The notes beneath the pieces were generated by a model. It had not been told where the DNA came from. It did no database searches and saw nothing but the letters and a program-made list of their open reading frames with translations. A stretch of DNA of 60,482 nucleotides from Candidatus Staskawiczbacteria bacterium (lineage in GTDB: Bacteria > Patescibacteriota > Minisyncoccia > Minisyncoccales > Staskawiczbacteraceae). The first letter of the stretch is position 1; every line of letters begins with the position of its first letter. The stretch lies in contig JAPLZF010000016.1 in assembly GCA_026395175.1 (NCBI GenBank), positions 1 to 60,482 of the forward strand. The letters are read 5' to 3'. Both the position numbers and the translations under genes were made by a program. Below, piece by piece: positions 11,201-50,441 of this stretch.

Positions 11201-11392
11201 TTCAAGAAATTCTTATTTTTTTCTTTTGTTAAGCTTAGTTCTGTTTCTTCTTTTGACTTTCCTGCCTAACCTTTTTTTGTTTGCCCAAGATGGCATGTGA
11301 TTTTCGAGCGAAACGAGGAAATCATCCTGAACTTTAGATGGATATATCGTTATTCATTATCTAAAGTGAAGGATACTCCTTTTTTCATTCTT

Positions 11393-11656
11393 TTATTTAT
11401 TATCCCCGACCTTTTTATTAATTAATTCTATTTTCTTTTCCCTTCGCCACCCTTTTATTTCCGCCTCTCTCATTCTAGTGTCTTTCAAATTATCAAAAAT
11501 TTCTGAATATTTTAATTTAACTGGTCTTCGTATTTTTGTATAATGCGCGCCACACTTTGATTCGTTGTGCTGTTTGATTCGTTTCGATAAATCATTAGTG
11601 CAACCAATATAAAATGATTCGTCTGCGCATTCGAGGATATAAATAAAGTATTGCAT
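11393..11656 (-). CDS. GIY-YIG nuclease family protein (YhbQ-like)
   Basis: MQYFIYILECADESFYIGCTNDLSKRIKQHN. ATG at 11656 preferred; the longer ORF runs through a GC-rich hairpin element. Confidence 0.85.
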   Translation of the reverse strand: MQYFIYILECADESFYIGCTNDLSKRIKQHNESKCGAHYTKIRRPVKLKYSEIFDNLKDTRMREAEIKGWRREKKIELINKKVGDNK

Positions 11657-11663
11657 TTTTGTC

Positions 11664-11693
11664 GACCCTTCGTCGTTGCGACTCCTCAGGGTC
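11664..11693. repeat. GC-rich hairpin element (variant), GACCCT...AGGGTC termini
   Basis: GACCCTTCGTCGTTGCGACTCCTCAGGGTC lies immediately upstream of the GIY-YIG start. Shares the CCCTTCG ... CTCAGGG ends with the other copies. Confidence 0.6.
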
Positions 11694-11730
11694 ATTTTTT
11701 CCTATATATATTTAAATGAGAAAAAATGAG

Positions 11731-11801
11731 CTGCGGGGCTAGGACTCGAACCTAGATAAACGCCTTCAGAGGGCGCGATCCTACCATTAGATGACCCCGC
11801 A
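11731..11801 (-). tRNA. tRNA-Gln (anticodon CTG)
   Basis: Hand-folded cloverleaf. U1-A72 acceptor TGCGGGG/CCCCGCA, anticodon loop CTCTGAA, T-loop TTCGAGT. CCA not encoded. Confidence 0.85.
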
Positions 11802-11820
11802 AAAATTTATAATTTTATTT

Positions 11821-12735
11821 TTATATTTCTAAATGTTTTTTTACGACAATTAAAGCAGAAATTACCCCGACTCCAATTCCAAAGCCTAACTGGATTAAAA
11901 CAAAAATCCACCAATTAGTCAAGAAAAATCCAAACAAGCTGAATCCCGGCAAAATTACTTCCACTTTAGATGACAGAATCAAGGCAAAAATTCCGGAAAG
12001 CAAAAAACAAATTACAAATGAAATAATTCCGTAAATTACTCCTTGAATTATGAAAGGTCCGCGGATAAACTGGTTTGATGCGCCCACTGTTTTCATGGTG
12101 TTTATTTCTTCTTTTGAATTTTCGATGGCAAGTTTTATGGTGTTGAAAACAACCAATATGGCAACAAGAATTAAAATAATTCCCAATATTATCCCAAAAA
12201 TAGTTATGTTGGAAGTGATAGAATAGATTTCTTCAATGGTGTCTTTTTTCTGAGAATAGTCCACTTTATCAATCAGCTTGCTGAAATCAGATGTCTGCAA
12301 AATATTTGCAACTTGGGCATATTGGGCAGGGTCACTGTTGGTTGTGATATTTAAAGACGGCAGAAATGGATTATTCCCTACCTCCTGCAAAGCCTGACCC
12401 AAAACCGCGTCATCTTTATGTTTTGCGCTGAAAGTTGCAAGAGCTTGGTCTTTTGAAACATACTCGACATTTTTTATGTTCGGCGACATTTTTATAATTT
12501 CATCTTTCACATTTAAAATATCCTGCTCTTGCGTGCCATCAACAAAATAAGCTGTAATATCAATTTTGTTTTGGATTTGGGCAGTTAAATAGCCGGCAAT
12601 TCCCTGAAAAAAGAAAAGCCCTGTCACAAGCATAATTGTAATTGTCAAAACAAAAATTGTTGCAATTGATATTCCTTTATTTCTGTTAAAATCATTAATT
12701 GCAAAACCTATAATTCTTTTTGTGTTATTTTTCAT
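11821..12735 (-). CDS. ftsX: cell division permease-like protein FtsX
   Basis: 304 aa. N-terminal TM, periplasmic domain, three C-terminal TM helices. Lies downstream of ftsE. Confidence 0.85.
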   Translation of the reverse strand: MKNNTKRIIGFAINDFNRNKGISIATIFVLTITIMLVTGLFFFQGIAGYLTAQIQNKIDITAYFVDGTQEQDILNVKDEIIKMSPNIKNVEYVSKDQALATFSAKHKDDAVLGQALQEVGNNPFLPSLNITTNSDPAQYAQVANILQTSDFSKLIDKVDYSQKKDTIEEIYSITSNITIFGIILGIILILVAILVVFNTIKLAIENSKEEINTMKTVGASNQFIRGPFIIQGVIYGIISFVICFLLSGIFALILSSKVEVILPGFSLFGFFLTNWWIFVLIQLGFGIGVGVISALIVVKKHLEI

Positions 12736-30996: not shown

Positions 30997-32847
30997 ATGC
31001 AAAACATACGAAACATAGCTATTATTGCTCACGTTGACCATGGAAAAACCACCTTAGTGGATGCGCTTTTACGGCAGTCAAAAACAGAAATGAAAAAGGA
31101 AGTTGCCGCTCAAGATATGATTTTAGACAGCAATGAATTGGAAAGAGAAAGAGGAATTACAATTTTCTCAAAAAACGCGTCTGTTTTATACAACCCTTCG
31201 ACAGGCTCAGGGCCTGCGGTTAAAATAAATATTATAGACACTCCGGGCCACGCAGATTTTGGCGGTGAAGTTGAAAGAGTTTTAAATATGGCAGATGGTT
31301 GCTTGCTTTTAATCGACGCAAAAGAGGGGCCAATGCCCCAAACAAGATTTGTTTTGAAAAAAGCTTTAGAAATGGGCCACAAAATTATTGTGGTTGTAAA
31401 CAAAATTGATAAGTCTGGCGCCAGGCCCGAATTTGCCTTGGAAGCTACACTTGAATTATTTTTGGAATTGGGAGCCGGAGACCACAGTTTGGACTTTCCT
31501 GTAATTTACGCTTCTGGCCGAGATGGAAAAGCGGGGCTTGAAGCAGACTTGTCAAAAATGGAAAACATAATTCCGGTTTTTGACGCAATTATAAAACACA
31601 TTCCCTCTCCCATTGCCGACGCAACAAAACCTTTGCAAATGCTTGTAACTTCAATTGCTCCAGACGACTTTAAAGGAAGAATTGCAATTGGAAGAATTCA
31701 TAACGGAATTTTAAAGGCAAACCAAGAAATTGTTCACATAAACAGAGAAGGCATAAAAACAAAAGCAAAACTGACTTCTTTGATGACCTTTGACGGGTTG
31801 GGAAGAACCGAGGCTTTGGAAGTGAAAGCCGGAGACATTGTGGCAATTGCCGGAATTGAAGACGTAACAATTGGAGAAACAATTGCAGATGCAGAAAATC
31901 CTGAAGCCTTGCCTTTGATTAACATTGAAGAGCCAACAGTTAAAATGACTTTTTTGGTTAACGACTCGCCTTTTGGCGGAAAAGAAGGAGAATTTTCAAC
32001 AACAAGACAAATTAGGCAAAGATTATTTAAAGAACTGGAAACCGATGTTTCTTTGAAGGTTGAAGAAACAGATAAAAATACTTGGATTGTTTCCGGCAGA
32101 GGAGAATTGCACTTGGCAATTTTAATTGAAAGAATGAGGCGAGAGGGCTATGAATTCCAAGTTTCAAGACCGCAAGTAATTTTGCGCGAAATAAACGGAA
32201 AAACAATGACTCCATACGACAAAATATTTATTGAAGTTCCAGAACAATATCAGGGCGTTGTTATGCAAAAAATGGGAACAAGAAAAGGCGAACTAAAAGA
32301 AATGAGCAGCGTAAACGGAATTGCATTTTTAGAATTTATAATTCCAACAAGAGGATTGTTTGGATACAAAAATGAATTTTTGACAGACACAAAAGGCCTT
32401 GGAATAATCAATACAATTTTCTTTGAATATATGGAGGACCCCGGAAACTGGAAAGAAAGAGACAATGGCTCTTTGGTTGCCACAGAATCTGGCGAAACAA
32501 GGCTTTATGGTTTAAAAAATGTTCAAGACCGAGGCACATTATTTTTTGGGCCGGCAGAAACAGTTTATGAAGGGCAAGTTGTTGGACAAAACTCAAGACC
32601 AAATGATATAAGAGTAAATGTTTGCAAAGAAAAACAGCTTTCAAACATGAGGGCAAAAGGAGAAAAAAACAGAGAACACTTTAATGTTCCAAAAACAATG
32701 GGGCTGGAAGACGCTTTAGAATATATTGGCGACGACGAATATGTGGAAATTACTCCAAAAAATATCCGCATAAGAAAAATACATTTAAAAGAAGTTGACG
32801 CCAAAAGAGCCGACCGCGCCGCCGATGGCGTAAAATTCGACTATTAA
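30997..32847 (+). CDS. typA: translational GTPase TypA/BipA
   Basis: 616 aa. AHVDHGKTT, DTPGH, NKID. EF-G-like domains without domain IV. Confidence 0.95.
   Translation: MQNIRNIAIIAHVDHGKTTLVDALLRQSKTEMKKEVAAQDMILDSNELERERGITIFSKNASVLYNPSTGSGPAVKINIIDTPGHADFGGEVERVLNMADGCLLLIDAKEGPMPQTRFVLKKALEMGHKIIVVVNKIDKSGARPEFALEATLELFLELGAGDHSLDFPVIYASGRDGKAGLEADLSKMENIIPVFDAIIKHIPSPIADATKPLQMLVTSIAPDDFKGRIAIGRIHNGILKANQEIVHINREGIKTKAKLTSLMTFDGLGRTEALEVKAGDIVAIAGIEDVTIGETIADAENPEALPLINIEEPTVKMTFLVNDSPFGGKEGEFSTTRQIRQRLFKELETDVSLKVEETDKNTWIVSGRGELHLAILIERMRREGYEFQVSRPQVILREINGKTMTPYDKIFIEVPEQYQGVVMQKMGTRKGELKEMSSVNGIAFLEFIIPTRGLFGYKNEFLTDTKGLGIINTIFFEYMEDPGNWKERDNGSLVATESGETRLYGLKNVQDRGTLFFGPAETVYEGQVVGQNSRPNDIRVNVCKEKQLSNMRAKGEKNREHFNVPKTMGLEDALEYIGDDEYVEITPKNIRIRKIHLKEVDAKRADRAADGVKFDY
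31191..31219 (+). repeat. GC-rich element copy inside typA (encodes NPSTGSGPA)
   Basis: CAACCCTTCGACAGGCTCAGGGCCTGCGG. Adds about 7 residues just before the INIIDTPGH G3 region. Confidence 0.7.
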
Positions 32848-36978: not shown

Positions 36979-36990
36979 TCTAAAACAAAA

Positions 36991-37019
36991 AACCGCCCTG
37001 AGCTTGTCGAAGGACGGTT
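36991..37019. terminator. bidirectional terminator built from a GC-rich element copy
   Basis: AACCGCCCTGAGCTTGTCGAAGGACGGTT, flanked by an A-run and a T-run. The core is the reverse complement of CCTTCGACAAGCTCAGGG. Confidence 0.65.
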
Positions 37020-37035
37020 TTTTTGTTTTATATTT

Positions 37036-45496: not shown

Positions 45497-45519
45497 TTAT
45501 GAATGAAATGAATAAAATC

Positions 45520-45543
45520 ATCCTGAGCCCGAAGGCGAAGGAT
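45520..45543. repeat. GC-rich hairpin element in the groES-groEL spacer
   Basis: ATCCTGAGCCCGAAGGCGAAGGAT (ATCCT/AGGAT stem). Confidence 0.6.
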
Positions 45544-45547
45544 ATTC

Positions 45548-46193: not shown

Positions 46194-49046
46194 TTACTTT
46201 AAATATTGGCCTGTGTAGGATTTTTTGACTTTGGAAACGTCTGCCGGAGTTCCTTCAGCAACAATTTGGCCTCCGCCATCGCCTCCTTCCGGGCCCAAGT
46301 CAATTAGCCAGTCGGCGTTTTTAATTAAATCGATGTTGTGCTCAATCACAAGCACTGTGTTTTTCTTTTCAACTAATCCGCCCAAAACAGAAATCAATTT
46401 TTTGATGTCGTCAAAGTGCAAGCCTGTTGTTGGTTCGTCCAAAATATACAAAGTTCTGCCGGTTCCTTTTCTGGAAAGCTCGGTTGCCAATTTTACCCTT
46501 TGCGCTTCTCCGCCGGACAAAGATGTTGCCGATTGCCCAAGTTCAACATAAGAAAGCCCAACTTCTTTTAAAGTTTTCATTTTTTCATAAAGCCCGGGAA
46601 TATTTTTGAAAAATTCCATTGCCTCTTCAACTGTCATATCCAAAACTTCGGCAATGTTTTTGTCTTTATAGGTAACTTCCAAAACTTCTTTGTTGTATCT
46701 TTTGCCATGGCATTCTTCGCACTCAACATAAATGTCCGGCAAAAAATACATTTCAACTTTTTTCTGCCCCTGACCTTCGCAGGCCTCGCACCTTCCGCCT
46801 TTTACGTTAAAAGAAAATCTGCCGGCTGAATATCCGCGCACGCGAGCTTCTTTTGTTTTGACAAAAATATCTCTAATGTGAGTAAATGCGCCGGTGTATG
46901 TTGCCGGGTTTGACCGCGGAGTCCTGCCAATTGGCGACTGGTCAACCAAAACAACTTTATTTATGTTATCAATTCCTAAAATTTCTTTGTGCTTGCCCGG
47001 TTCGTCTTTTGCTCGGTAAAACTTTTTCAGCAAATACTTTGCCAAAATGTCATTCACCAAAGATGATTTCCCAGAGCCCGAAACTCCGGTTACGCAGACA
47101 AATTTTTCCAAAGGGATTTTGACATCAATATTTTTTAAATTGTGTTCCTCCGCTCCAATAATAGTCAAATTTTGAAATTTGGATTTTAGATTTGTTTTGG
47201 ATTTTAAAATCTGAATTTTAGATTTTTTACCTTCTATCTCAACTCTCTTCCGACCGGCTAGATAGTCTCCCGTTAATGTATGGCTTTTGAGAAGCTCTTT
47301 ATATGTACCTTGAAAAACAACTTTTCCTCCGTGCTTTCCGGCTCCCGGCCCAATTTCAACAAGCCAGTCGGCCGACTGCATTGTTTGCGGGTCGTGTTCA
47401 ACCACAACAACCGTGTTGCCAAGCTCTTTTAATTTTATTAAAGTATCAATTAATTTGTGCTGGTCTCGGGCGTGCAATCCAATTGACGGCTCATCTAAAA
47501 TATATAAAACTCCAGATAATTTTGAACCAATTTGTGTTGCCAATCTTATTCTTTGCTCTTCTCCGCCGGCAAGTGTTCCGGCTTTTCTGGACAAAGTTAA
47601 ATATGCCAATCCAACATCGGTTAAAAATTGTGTCCTGTCAATTATTTCTTTTAAAATTCCTGCGCTGACTTTTGTTTTTTCAAGCCCGGAAAAAAATTTT
47701 TCAGCTTTGTCAACCGGCATATCAACAATTTTATCAATTGACTGGTCAGCCACCGTAACTGCCAAAACTTCCGGCTTTAATCTTTTGCCGTGGCATTTTG
47801 GGCAAATTTTTATCACCATATATTGCTCAATTTCTACCCTTGTCCAATCAGAATCTGTTTCGTGATATCTGCGTTCTAAATTAGCTACAACTCCTTCAAA
47901 ATCGCCGTCGCCATATAAAATTACATCAATGGCTTTTTTGGGAAGTTCGCCGACTTCTTCATCTAAAGAAAATTTATATTTTTCTGCCAGGCCGGAAATT
48001 ATAGAATAATAATAACCTTGCCTGCCAACTTTATGGGAAGCCCGCGACCACGGCCAAATGGCACCCTCTGCCAAAGTTAATCTTTTATTTGGAATTACCA
48101 ATTCAGGGTCAACTTCTAATTTTTCGCCAAGGCCAGTACATTCTGGGCAGGCGCCATAAGGATTGTTAAAAGAAAATAACCTTGGTTCTAATTCTGGCAA
48201 AGAAATTCCGCAATCTTCGCAGGCAAAATGCTCTGAAAAAACAAAATCAGAATAGTTTTGTTTTTTCAGAGCATTTTGCCCTGAGGGGGTACCCTTTGGG
48301 TCCCGAAGGGCTTCTTTGATATTTGCACTTACAATTACAATTCCTTTGCCAAGTCTTAATGCAGTTTCCAAAGAATCAACCAGTCTTGATCTGTCCAAAT
48401 CTTTGTCCAAAACCAGTCTGTCAACAACAACTTCAATGTCGTGTTTTTTTTGTTTGTCCAAAGGCTTGTCCAAAGATTCTTCAACCTGGTAAATATTTCC
48501 GTCAATTCTGACTCTCACAAACCCACCCCTGTTAATTTCTTCCAAAACTCCGTGATGTTCACCCTTCTTGCTTCTTAAAACCGGACCCAAAATTGTAATT
48601 TCTGTTTTCTTTGGCAGTTTTAAAACTTGATCAACAATTTGGTCAACTGTTTGTTTTGAAATTAATTTTCCGCAATTTGGGCAATGAGGCTTTCCAATAC
48701 GGGCGTAAAGTAACCTTAAATAATCATATATTTCAGTTATAGTGCCAACAGTAGACCTTGGATTGTGAGTTGATTTTCTTTGGTCAATTGAAATTGCAGG
48801 GCTTATTCCTTCTATCTTATCTACGTCTGGTTTGTCCATTACACCCAAAAATTGCCTGGCATAAGCTGACAAACTTTCCACATATCTTCTCTGCCCTTCT
48901 GCATACAAAGTATCAAAAGCCAAAGATGATTTTCCAGAACCAGACAAGCCAGTTATCACAACCAACTTATTTTTTGGAATGTCCAAATCAATATTTTTCA
49001 GATTATGCACGCGAGCTCCGCGTATTTTTATAAAATCATTTTGCAT
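46194..49046 (-). CDS. uvrA: excinuclease ABC subunit UvrA
   Basis: 950 aa. Two ABC modules ([18 protein letters not shown]) and zinc modules. Confidence 0.97.
48277..48311 (-). repeat. GC-rich element copy inside uvrA (encodes [12 protein letters not shown])
   Basis: Plus-strand sequence TGCCCTGAGGGGGTACCCTTTGGGTCCCGAAGGGC, with GCCCT/AGGGC termini. Confidence 0.6.
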
Positions 49047-49148: not shown

Positions 49149-50441
49149 ATGGACAAGTTTAAATTTATAGCAAAATCAGAACTCAGCGAACTGCCGAAGA
49201 CATCGGGGGTGTATTCGTTTTACGAAAAAAATAAAGTTATTTATATAGGAAAGGCAATAAATATACAAAATCGAGTAAAAAATCATTTTAACCAGCCAAG
49301 CTACCGAGACAATCTTTTTATGGACAAGGTTGATAAAATTGGCTATTTAGAAACCAATTCAGAAATTGAAGCGTTAATTTTGGAAGCTAATTTAATAAAA
49401 AAATACCAGCCAAAATTTAATGTTGTCTGGCGGGACGATAAAAATTATTTTTATGTGGCAATTGCCAAAAATGACCAAAAAATTCCATATATTTTTATTA
49501 CCCACCAACCAAAAAATTCGAAATTAGAAATTCGAAATTCGAAATTTAGTTATGTTGGTCCTTTTGTTGAAGGCACAGCCTTAAAAAAAACTTTGCGATT
49601 TTTACGAAGAGTATTCCCCTATTACATAACAACCCTTCGACGTGGCTCAGGGCAGGCAATCCATCCAAAAACAAAATGCACTTATTGCCATCTGGGATTA
49701 TGCCCGGGCCCAAATCCAGACTTGAAAGATTACAAAAATAATATTAAAAAACTAATTTTAATTCTTAAAGGAAAACGAAGCGCTGTTTTGAATTCCTTAA
49801 AAAGGGAAATGAAAGATTTATCTGCCGAGAACAGGTTTGAAGAAGCCGGAAAAATTAGAGATAGAATTTCTAATTTGCAACAAGTAATGTCCCACACTAA
49901 CGTGATTAACAGCGAAAAAGTCGGTGGGACGTCGGACGTCCCACCGACTTTAAATAAGATTTTGGGAGTGGATAAAGAGATTCACAGAATAGAATGTTAT
50001 GATGTTTCAAATATACAAGGGAAACAAGCTACCGGTTCTATGGTGGTTTTTGTGGATGGCAAGGCAGATAAAAATCAATACAGAAAATTTAAAATTAAAA
50101 TGAAAAATGAGCCAAACGACATTGCAATGTTAAAAGAAACTTTGCAAAGAAGATTTACGCACCCGGAATGGAAATATCCTGAGGTCATTTTAATTGACGG
50201 AGGCAAGGCGCAACTGAATGTTGGAATAAAAGTCAGAGAACAATTCCATAGAATTGTTCCTTTAATTATTTCTGTTGCAAAAGGCAGACAGGAATTATTC
50301 ATAGAAAACAGAAAAAAAGCAATCCCCTTAAAATCCCTGCCACAGGAAGTTTACAATTTAATAAAAAATTTAGATGACGAAGCTCATAGGTTTGCCATTG
50401 CCTACCATAAAAAATTGCGCAAAAAATCATTATTGCAATAA
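49149..50441 (+). CDS. uvrC: excinuclease ABC subunit UvrC, short form without the C-terminal (HhH)2 domain
   Basis: GIY-YIG ([17 protein letters not shown]), UVR motif ([15 protein letters not shown]) and an endonuclease domain ending [15 protein letters not shown]. 430 aa. Confidence 0.9.
49518..49545 (+). repeat. four tandem heptamers (TCGAAAT/TAGAAAT) inside uvrC
   Basis: TCGAAAT TAGAAAT TCGAAAT TCGAAAT, encoding [10 protein letters not shown]. Confidence 0.8.
49631..49657 (+). repeat. GC-rich element copy inside uvrC (encodes TLRRGSGQA)
   Basis: AACCCTTCGACGTGGCTCAGGGCAGGC. Confidence 0.7.
49920..49948. repeat. 29-nt GC-rich perfect palindrome inside uvrC (encodes [10 protein letters not shown])
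   Basis: GTCGGTGGGACGTC-G-GACGTCCCACCGAC, two 14-nt arms. Confidence 0.8.

Follow-up and report, generated by a model that had tools for sequence, protein, structure and literature searches.

Do the short runs of extra residues in several conserved proteins of a Candidatus Staskawiczbacteria bacterium represent ordinary coding sequence, or a dispersed DNA element that entered pre-existing genes? The question arises from typA, which contains at positions 31192-31219 (+ strand) a short string, AACCCTTCGACAGGCTCAGGGCCTGCGG, read N-P-S-T-G-S-G-P-A, that recurs in variant form elsewhere on the same contig (JAPLZF010000016.1, assembly GCA_026395175.1). We analyzed the whole 60,482-nt stretch of this contig (36% G+C), hereafter the window, to which the copy counts and expectations refer. 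A preliminary description of this DNA had listed copies of the string in several housekeeping genes and intergenic sites and likened them to Rickettsia palindromic elements (RPEs). Our results suggest that they are probably copies of a very small, non-autonomous DNA repeat that was inserted into genes of Patescibacteria.

Every copy listed previously was found, within 1-4 bases of where it had been placed, and we added a second copy in atpA. The strict pattern AACCCTTCGAC-N(1-2)-GGCTCAGGGC, a 22-23-mer, matches twice, in typA (31192) and uvrC (49631), compared to 0.00 matches expected, and allowing two mismatches also recovers atpD. The generic core CCTTCG-N(1-25)-CTCAGG occurs six times (typA, uvrC, uvrA, the groES-groEL spacer, a terminator-like intergenic site and the leader of a GIY-YIG gene), compared to 0.02 expected and to none in 100 shuffled sequences. 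Three degenerate copies, in atpD and at two sites in atpA, bring the family to nine. The copies are 21-45 nt long and have a common architecture, in which the arms CCTTCG and CTCAGG flank an interior of variable length. Six of the nine lie inside open reading frames (ORFs). Besides typA, these are uvrC (49631-49657, + strand; T-L-R-R-G-S-G-Q-A), atpD (21118-21144, - strand; in the window allele N-P-S-T-G-S-V-S-A followed by TAG), atpA copy 1 (24562-24588, - strand; H-S-A-S-S-G-Q-A, in the N-terminal beta-barrel hairpin), atpA copy 2 (24118-24147, - strand; S-T-S-A-G-S-V-P-P, in the loop after INQ), and a long variant in uvrA (48274-48314, - strand), in which the usual arms surround a nested GGGACCC...GGGTACCC hairpin. 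All six are in frame and in sense orientation, and their 3' arms share a single frame, which reads G/S/P-S-G (G-S-V in atpA copy 2) and continues with Q in uvrC, atpA copy 1 and uvrA.

Given the encoded peptides and the codon usage of the genome, the observed codon strings have a probability of 1e-5 to 1e-7 per copy, with rare codon choices that include TCG, GGG, GCG, ACG, CGA and CGT. In uvrC, the 5' arm is read in a different frame from that of typA (T-L-R-R), and an interior that is one base longer returns the 3' arm to G-S-G-Q-A. Because of the rare codons, the second 5'-arm frame in uvrC and the three copies that are not translated, the family similarity resides at the level of nucleotides rather than peptides, and it extends far beyond what Ser/Gly-rich coding sequence would produce. 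The shared frame of the 3' arm may reflect selection in favor of residues that are small and flexible; in other genomes of the Candidate Phyla Radiation (CPR; Patescibacteria), the antisense orientation and further frames occur as well.

Alignment to solved homologues revealed extra residues at the elements, as had been claimed for TypA and AtpA. TypA contains 7 extra residues (...NASVLYNPSTGSGPAVKINIIDTPGH compared to ...WND-------YRINIVDTPGH of E. coli BipA in an alignment to BipA structures), which lie in the G domain, at the tip of the beta2-beta3 hairpin. AtpA contains 9 extra residues at site 1 relative to PDB homologues, or 6 relative to its closest relative, and 8 at site 2 relative to PDB homologues. 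UvrA has 26 residues where structures have ~5, which corresponds to ~21 extra, and UvrC has 7-8 added residues in the linker that precedes its Cys cluster. The structures of BipA, F1-alpha, F1-beta and UvrA from E. coli and other organisms do not share these residues, and the alignment gaps fall exactly at the elements. Neither atpA copy is present in L124, which at 78% identity is the closest relative recovered for atpA. Since the extra residues coincide with gaps relative to solved homologues and most relatives lack them, as described below, the sequences indicate that the coding copies are real insertions, specific to the lineage. Comparison of filled and empty sites in typA, uvrC and atpA showed no duplicated flank and hence no target-site duplication, and the element often takes the place of one or two native codons (a partial replacement in typA and uvrC). 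No consistent microhomology between the motif and the native sites was found. In an AlphaFold2 model of TypA (mean predicted local distance difference test score of 68; ~70-76 around the insert), residues 66-74 form an unstructured loop between strands 61-65 and 75-81, which agrees with the surface-loop location that had been envisaged. The inserts thus appear to occupy surface loops that the fold tolerates, according to the model for TypA and judging from gaps between conserved blocks for the other hosts.

The inserts have a patchy distribution among relatives. We compared 120 TypA relatives with 83-93% identity across the first 200 residues. Of these, 95 lack an insert and contain the canonical 17-residue hairpin, all of exactly canonical length, and the remaining 25 have an insert at the same hairpin tip. 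Insert variants include NPSTGSGQA, TPSASSGTA, PSASSGL, DPSNPSGQA, TPAGSEQP and TTAASAKAPASQ, and the DNA of the carriers contains variants of the same nucleotide motif; the DPSNPSGQA type is ~70% identical to the NPSTGSGQA type at the DNA level. On a maximum-likelihood tree built without the insert, in which 114 sequences were scored, the carriers are scattered. The TypA sister of the window (P0003, 97% identical) has TPAGSEQPI, and the remaining NPSTGSG-type carriers belong to a different, well-supported clade among insert-less sequences. Parsimony requires 18 changes on the 114 sequences, compared to a mean of 22.9 with shuffled labels. The typA copy in the window matches the consensus at every specified position, whereas in the sister L204 (97% identity), 13 of 27 positions of the copy and a codon have diverged, even though the flanks differ at 2 of 66. 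This contrast hints more strongly than any other observation at renewal or maintenance; neutral decay would be expected to affect both lineages. The typA copies of the window and of the carrier L201 are identical at 25 of 27 positions, and L201 differs at 9 of 45 upstream bases.

A similar distribution was observed for UvrC, of which 103 of 113 relatives have an 11-residue linker without an insert, and seven relatives together with the window have TLRRGSGQA-like inserts at offsets that differ by one or two codons. Where the insert DNA was read (the window, L230 and L231), frame, phase and tail are alike. Site 1 of atpA contains CCCATTCGGCAAGCTCAGGGCAGGCC in the window and the canonical ACCCTTCGACAAGCTCAGGGC, read DPSTSSGQ, in a relative of 90% identity from run X2. 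Furthermore, a 31-33-nt stretch of the atpA copy has matches of at least 94% identity on contigs of other organisms from the same samples. The copies in typA, uvrC, atpA (both) and the GIY-YIG leader were recovered without differences in 3-4 independent public runs, with typA on identical contigs in runs X2, X3 and X5, and with the uvrC copy and the GIY-YIG cassette each fixed in 4 runs. This exact recovery, together with similar copies at the same sites of host genes in independent assemblies from other samples, speaks against an artefact.

Two further features of uvrC were observed. The UvrC relatives P0150 and P0231 have a different 4-residue insert (GPRGYP / GPKGYP) in the same linker, which indicates that the linker accepts more than one kind of insert. 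In addition, positions 49509-49547 contain a second in-frame repeat family, an array of 7-nt units, (AAATTCG)n, on a contig with a depth ~ten times that of the genome. Several contigs of that same depth carry the array, which points to several more array copies in the genome.

The atpD copy was found to be a composite case. The preliminary description had cited it as an example of an in-frame insertion, and the element itself stands; however, the window allele is damaged, with an in-frame TAG directly after the element, a 30-nt deletion and seven substitutions, all of them transversions, and it lacks the conserved FNV-GEP-D block. None of the 8 public runs examined had contigs with this allele. 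Runs X1 and X5 contain an intact allele, which has 30 more bases and seven substitutions relative to the window, reads ...LFDVCGNVLDK-ANPSTGSGSA-KKFKTFWQIHRQPP and keeps the element as an ordinary insert in frame. Since the intact allele is present in these two runs and the window allele in 0 of 8, the TAG is therefore a rare or erroneous variant and not a property of the element. The contigs of the three deepest runs (X2, X3 and X4) break at 21062-21200 within atpD, which suggests micro-heterogeneity or assembly error at the repeat. We had considered the atpD element to be native sequence with a GEPID-like GQPFD in the +1 frame, and this candidate was dropped once the intact allele was found. 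Relatives L121, L122 and L124 lack the atpD element. The atpD relative L125 has NNPSTGG at the element site, encoded by AT-rich codons (AAT CCG TCA ACT GGT GGA) that differ from the motif mainly at third codon positions, and this sequence is either what remains of a decayed copy or a peptide that selection has preserved.

Three copies are not translated. One, at 36987-37024 (- strand), is flanked by an A-run and a T-run and lies between a convergent 126-aa ORF and the sigma-70 gene rpoD. The fold of one strand has -16.0 kcal/mol (z-score, z, of -4.5), compared to -11.8 kcal/mol (z -2.4) for the opposite strand. With such flanks, convergent neighbors and folds, this copy has the form of a bidirectional intrinsic terminator and looks like one by prediction, in line with the earlier suggestion that it forms the core of an intergenic terminator. 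The second, in the groES-groEL spacer between the Cpn10 and Cpn60 genes (45517-45545, - strand; ATCCTTCG-CCTTCGG-GCTCAGGAT), has the outer stem ATCC/GGAT. The third is the leader hairpin of the GIY-YIG gene (11661-11695, + strand; GACCCTTCGTCGTTGCGACTCCTCAGGGTC), which is antisense to that gene and 8 nt upstream of its start codon. The long and intergenic copies fold such that an outer stem surrounds either an inner hairpin or a loop of 11 nt, with z from -1.8 to -4.5; the groES-groEL copy is the weakest of these (z -1.8), and the long uvrA variant folds with -18.3 kcal/mol (z -2.6).

The outer stem covaries. It is CCC/GGG in some copies, CAC/GTG in atpA copy 2, L202 and L227, TCC/GGA in the groES-groEL spacer and L132, and TTC/GAA in L130. 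At the GIY-YIG leader, GACAC/GTGTC in L223 corresponds to GACCC/GGGTC in the window, and an inner G-C pair is replaced by A-T in the hairpin downstream of the GIY-YIG gene. Outside the pattern-selected set, the short anchor TTCG...CTCA shows a modest excess of paired flanks (18 vs 10), so the argument from covariation rests on these named examples. Eight of the nine copies have the same sense as the local transcript, and orientation is set by the sense of the gene, not by the chromosome strand.

The family extends well beyond this organism. A scan for CCTTCGAC-N(1-3)-GCTCAGGGC in one genome per species returned at least 120 loci, with 132 hits, and the core CCCTTCGAC-NN-GCTCAGGGC-RRRC was found across most bacterial phyla. 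Among the matches listed (80 records) are Cyanobacteria, Actinomycetota, Pseudomonadota, Acidobacteriota, Chloroflexota, Verrucomicrobiota, Planctomycetota and Bacteroidota, as well as Nitrospira, NC10, Armatimonadetes, Spirochaetales and five CPR genomes, and they include cultured isolates. For 17 specified bases, ~200 chance matches would be expected in the scanned collection, compared to the at least 120 loci. However, positions that the pattern leaves unspecified are conserved, with C at -1 in 129/132 hits and C at +4 in 100/132, and nearly all hits are therefore members of the family. The interior is AA or AG in 76 of the 132 hits, and the tails are GAAC, AGGC or AAGC; the AGGC tails of the uvrC and atpA copies in the window are thus of one of the pan-phylum types. 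The low-GC non-CPR genomes checked have the motif in short ORFs, i.e., mostly between genes, and CPR genomes have it within long ORFs. A sister variant, GATCCTTCG...GCTCAGGATGAC, is present in L128, L132, L065 and the groES-groEL spacer of the window. Left arms such as GGTGAGCCTGTCGAACC adjoin the motif, and inverted doublets occur in GC-rich genomes.

Judged by this distribution, the family is pan-bacterial and not peculiar to the Patescibacteria lineage, which narrows the earlier claim that it was uncharacterized for this lineage. That claim holds insofar as we found no published description of the repeat in the literature searched: queries with nucleotide and peptide strings of the motif returned nothing relevant, and queries by topic returned only reviews of RPEs and of transposable elements of the miniature inverted-repeat type (MITEs) and work on SegB of phage T4. 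Ten motif-rich loci gave no match in Rfam 15. A 14-mer scan of viral contigs was dropped because its matches were mostly chance, with G at +1 in just 45/123.

The GIY-YIG gene that follows one of the hairpins provides a candidate partner. It encodes an 87-aa nuclease (11393-11656, - strand; PF01541, E 9.4e-16), is located downstream of ftsX and directly after tRNA-Gln (11730-11801, - strand), which is immediately upstream of the cassette, and has the family hairpin as its leader. A further hairpin downstream of the gene (11321-11374, - strand) has arms that we read as CCTTCA...TTCAGG. An ORF with a GIY-YIG catalytic domain next to a tRNA 3' end has the layout of a homing cassette. Homologues with 70-86% identity are present in several CPR classes in differing genomic contexts, and in the five independent contexts read, boxes CTTCGTCGC...CTCAG and/or GCGACGAAG precede the gene, with L216 containing a degenerate version only. 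The gene lies between dnaX and a flavodoxin gene in L206/L223, where the leader stem is compensated. In L227/L228, the leader lies inside a tRNA array and starts at a tRNA 3' end, and in L229, the order ftsX-tRNA-GIY-YIG is as in the window and the leader again starts at the tRNA 3' end. Leaders that are homologous and have covarying stems were found in L206, L223, L227 and L229, and the layout of a tRNA followed by the cassette in the window, L227, L228 and L229. Furthermore, a contig of run X5 contains a short canonical copy, ACTTCGGCAAGCTCAGTG, directly after the 3' end of tRNA-Gln. We tentatively regard the small GIY-YIG nuclease as the most likely trans-acting enzyme and thus as a candidate mobilizer, although the odds that it has this role are well below even.

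Other features of these GIY-YIG loci were apparent. The ftsX-tRNA-GIY-YIG order (window 11321-12735) is common to the window and the distant Patescibacteria contig L229, whose nuclease is 72% identical, which implies that the cassette can be old at this site. A 33-nt stretch past the downstream hairpin (window 11298-11330) recurs elsewhere in the genome (same depth, 4 runs), and its second genomic copy adjoins another family hairpin, CGCTTCGGCATAAATGCCTCAGCG. In L227/L228 (501-1249), the tRNA array is interleaved with two GIY-YIG genes, and the first of these ends in a stop codon that overlaps the next tRNA gene at its 5' end. In L121 (457-960), a different small GIY-YIG gene splits atpG after codon 22, and a recoded duplicate of 22 atpG codons (MESLQNLKKRIKSVSNVGQITK) restores the downstream gene; the cassette, bounded by TCCCGATA and TATCGGGA, has in its sequence the layout expected of intron-less homing.

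Our preferred explanation, to which we assign a probability of roughly 0.6, is that the element is a very small, non-autonomous DNA repeat whose family of copies was written into genes of Patescibacteria after divergence and is spread or maintained by templated copying, with harmless coding copies surviving. The repeat would comprise a short form of ~21-27 nt and long forms of 30-50 nt, with the conserved arms CCTTCG and CTCAGG, a covarying flanking outer stem and a fixed TC/TC internal loop. Its interior would be free to consist of 5 nt or a nested hairpin, and the family would be part of a superfamily in most bacterial phyla. Copies would enter pre-existing genes after divergence from the closest sequenced relatives, leaving no target-site duplication, and a selection filter would let coding copies persist where they do no harm, i.e., in surface loops, in sense orientation and with the reading frame kept. 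The same module may act as an RNA hairpin outside genes, as in the terminator-like and groES-groEL copies. Spread and upkeep by templated copying, either insertion or short-patch conversion from other copies, could explain how the arms stay at consensus.

Several observations weigh against this explanation. The short coding copies fold no better than shuffled sequences (z -1.7 to +1.4). There was no insertion or excision polymorphism within the population, where the typA, uvrC and atpA copies are fixed in 3-4 runs, and the runs thus give no sign of present-day mobility. Copies at orthologous sites resemble each other in their tails, which is compatible with one old insertion per gene followed by many precise losses. 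Other points bear on the enzyme: a GIY-YIG homologue lies within 8 kb of the motif in 0 of 120 pan-phylum loci, and no gene family recurs beside the motif in those loci, where the largest cluster of neighbor genes covers 8/120 and no mobility gene is evident among the clusters, which are unannotated. Solo copies lie within 300 nt of a tRNA in 3/132 cases vs ~1 expected, a weak adjacency. In addition, the GIY-YIG-type interior, TCGCTTCCGCTC, differs from the solo interior ACAAG; a common descent of the two is no more than plausible.

The resemblance among orthologous copies raises the possibility of a single ancient insertion per host gene, inherited vertically and later lost or diverged, without mobility since, and with arms kept by a site-specific RNA or DNA function. 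Same-site copies are indeed alike in frame, phase and tail across genomes (typA of the window and L201; uvrC of the window, L230 and L231), the ~70% DNA identity of the DPSNPSGQA and NPSTGSGQA types fits such a history, and so does the lack of polymorphism within the population. However, this history needs ~18 independent changes on the 114 TypA sequences, and each loss must restore the canonical 17-residue hairpin exactly, as in 95 of 95 insert-less sequences. It also leaves unexplained why identical arms occur at unrelated sites and in unrelated phyla, and why the typA copy is at consensus in the window and decayed in its sister, and we consider it unlikely. Because all of the insert-less TypA sequences have exactly the canonical length, either repeated site-specific gain or one gain with many exact losses would be unusual. 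Homologous recombination could produce the same patchiness without a transposition-like step, if insert-bearing pieces of typA, uvrC and atpA were exchanged among related Patescibacteria, e.g., through DNA uptake. This would account for the scattered carriers on the TypA tree and for the close matches to the atpA stretch on contigs of other organisms. The window typA flanks match those of the insert-poor sister and not those of the carrier L201, so an exchanged tract would be confined to the element itself, and recombination leaves unexplained both the first arrival at a site and the copies in unrelated genes. We therefore judge this explanation improbable.

A host signal kept by selection, rather than a selfish repeat, could take the form of an RNA hairpin for termination, processing or stability, or of a DNA uptake or recombination sequence. 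The terminator-like and groES-groEL copies fold well and are positioned where such signals act, 8 of 9 copies are sense relative to the transcript, and the hosts include the genome-maintenance genes uvrA and uvrC; genome-maintenance genes are also among the hosts of neisserial uptake sequences. However, most close relatives manage without the coding copies, the short coding copies lack a significant fold, orientation tracks gene sense and not the chromosome strand, and the core is the same from Cyanobacteria to Actinomycetota, unlike lineage-specific uptake and Chi sequences. We give a host signal slightly less weight than recombination. An artefact of assembly or binning, or merely fast-evolving Ser/Gly-rich loops, would fit the atpD region, for which the window allele has no support in the 8 runs and contigs break in the three deepest. 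Against this reading stand the recovery without differences of the copies in typA, uvrC, atpA and the GIY-YIG leader, independent assemblies from other samples that contain the motif at these same sites of host genes, and the codon-level probabilities, and we consider it scarcely credible. Finally, a more ambitious version of the mobile repeat would make the CCTTCG...CTCAGG hairpin the recognition substrate of the common ~85-aa GIY-YIG nucleases in a pan-bacterial homing-like system. The extruded hairpin would be nicked and repaired by copying from further members of the family, a process that would hold the arms identical from phylum to phylum and would occasionally write a new 7-9-codon loop into an essential gene. 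We regard this version as a long shot, on a par with the single ancient insertion.

If the preferred explanation is correct, a ~24-base repeat would repeatedly remodel proteins that are essential and highly conserved in ultra-small bacteria, namely ATP synthase alpha and beta, BipA, UvrA and UvrC. The explanation would also provide a name and a structure for the sequence behind spurious annotated peptides, such as PFDKLRANG (PFDKLRA), SLSKG, VRPELVEG and LRSGQA, which occur in many 'hypothetical proteins' and are presumably translations of the motif. In practice, copies break metagenome assemblies and inflate the apparent variability of loops in phylogenetic marker genes. A true link to the GIY-YIG nuclease would offer a testable route to a new mechanism of DNA mobility, and a homing-like system would be among the smallest known mobile DNAs and a general source of loop insertions in Patescibacteria.

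Several known systems resemble this repeat in part. Repetitive extragenic palindromic (REP) sequences, including bacterial interspersed mosaic elements (BIMEs) and REP doublets forming hairpins (REPINs), which depend on REP-associated tyrosine transposases (RAYTs), are extragenic and species-specific and start with GTAG or GTGG. Like them, the present family consists of GC-rich imperfect hairpins in the range of 20-40 nt that share a conserved mismatch, reach a high copy number, are now and then used as terminators and, in GC-rich genomes, form inverted doublets. Unlike them, 6 of the 9 present copies are translated, the core is common to many phyla, and no copy has a GTAG head. Uptake and Chi sequences are lineage-specific words, whereas the present core occurs in most phyla and is oriented by gene sense. 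MITEs can act as mobile terminators, e.g., SPRITE of Streptococcus pneumoniae (PMC10969869). The copy at 36987-37024 is similarly a member of a repeat family with the form of a rho-independent terminator; however, the present copies lack terminal inverted repeats other than the stem, show no target-site duplication, and mostly lie away from gene ends. The SegB gene of phage T4 is a free-standing GIY-YIG homing endonuclease gene within a tRNA cluster (PMC2330249). A small GIY-YIG gene likewise lies directly beside tRNA genes in the window, L227/L228 and L229, although the present protein is just 87 aa, lacks a separate DNA-binding domain and is no more than a putative homing enzyme. We know of no precedent for a link between a GIY-YIG nuclease and solo hairpins.

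The closest parallel is to the RPEs. Elements RPE-1 to RPE-10 (Ogata et al., 2000, summarized in PMC10969869) are described in that summary as ~150 bp long and are reported from Rickettsia species. Relative to that description, the present element, with a short form of 21-27 nt and long forms of 30-50 nt, is 5-7 times smaller, and a core found in most phyla sets the family apart from elements reported from one genus. The short form is also not a self-sufficient palindrome, so the earlier comparison needs amending in this respect, and size and symmetry both separate the element from RPEs. A further difference is that the element recurs at the same loops in relatives (TypA and UvrC). By analogy, however, the comparison of behavior is right: as in the RPEs so summarized, a dispersed repeat in a bacterium with a reduced genome, which encodes no transposase of its own, lies in frame in unrelated housekeeping genes and is translated as a conserved peptide that is compatible with the fold of its host.

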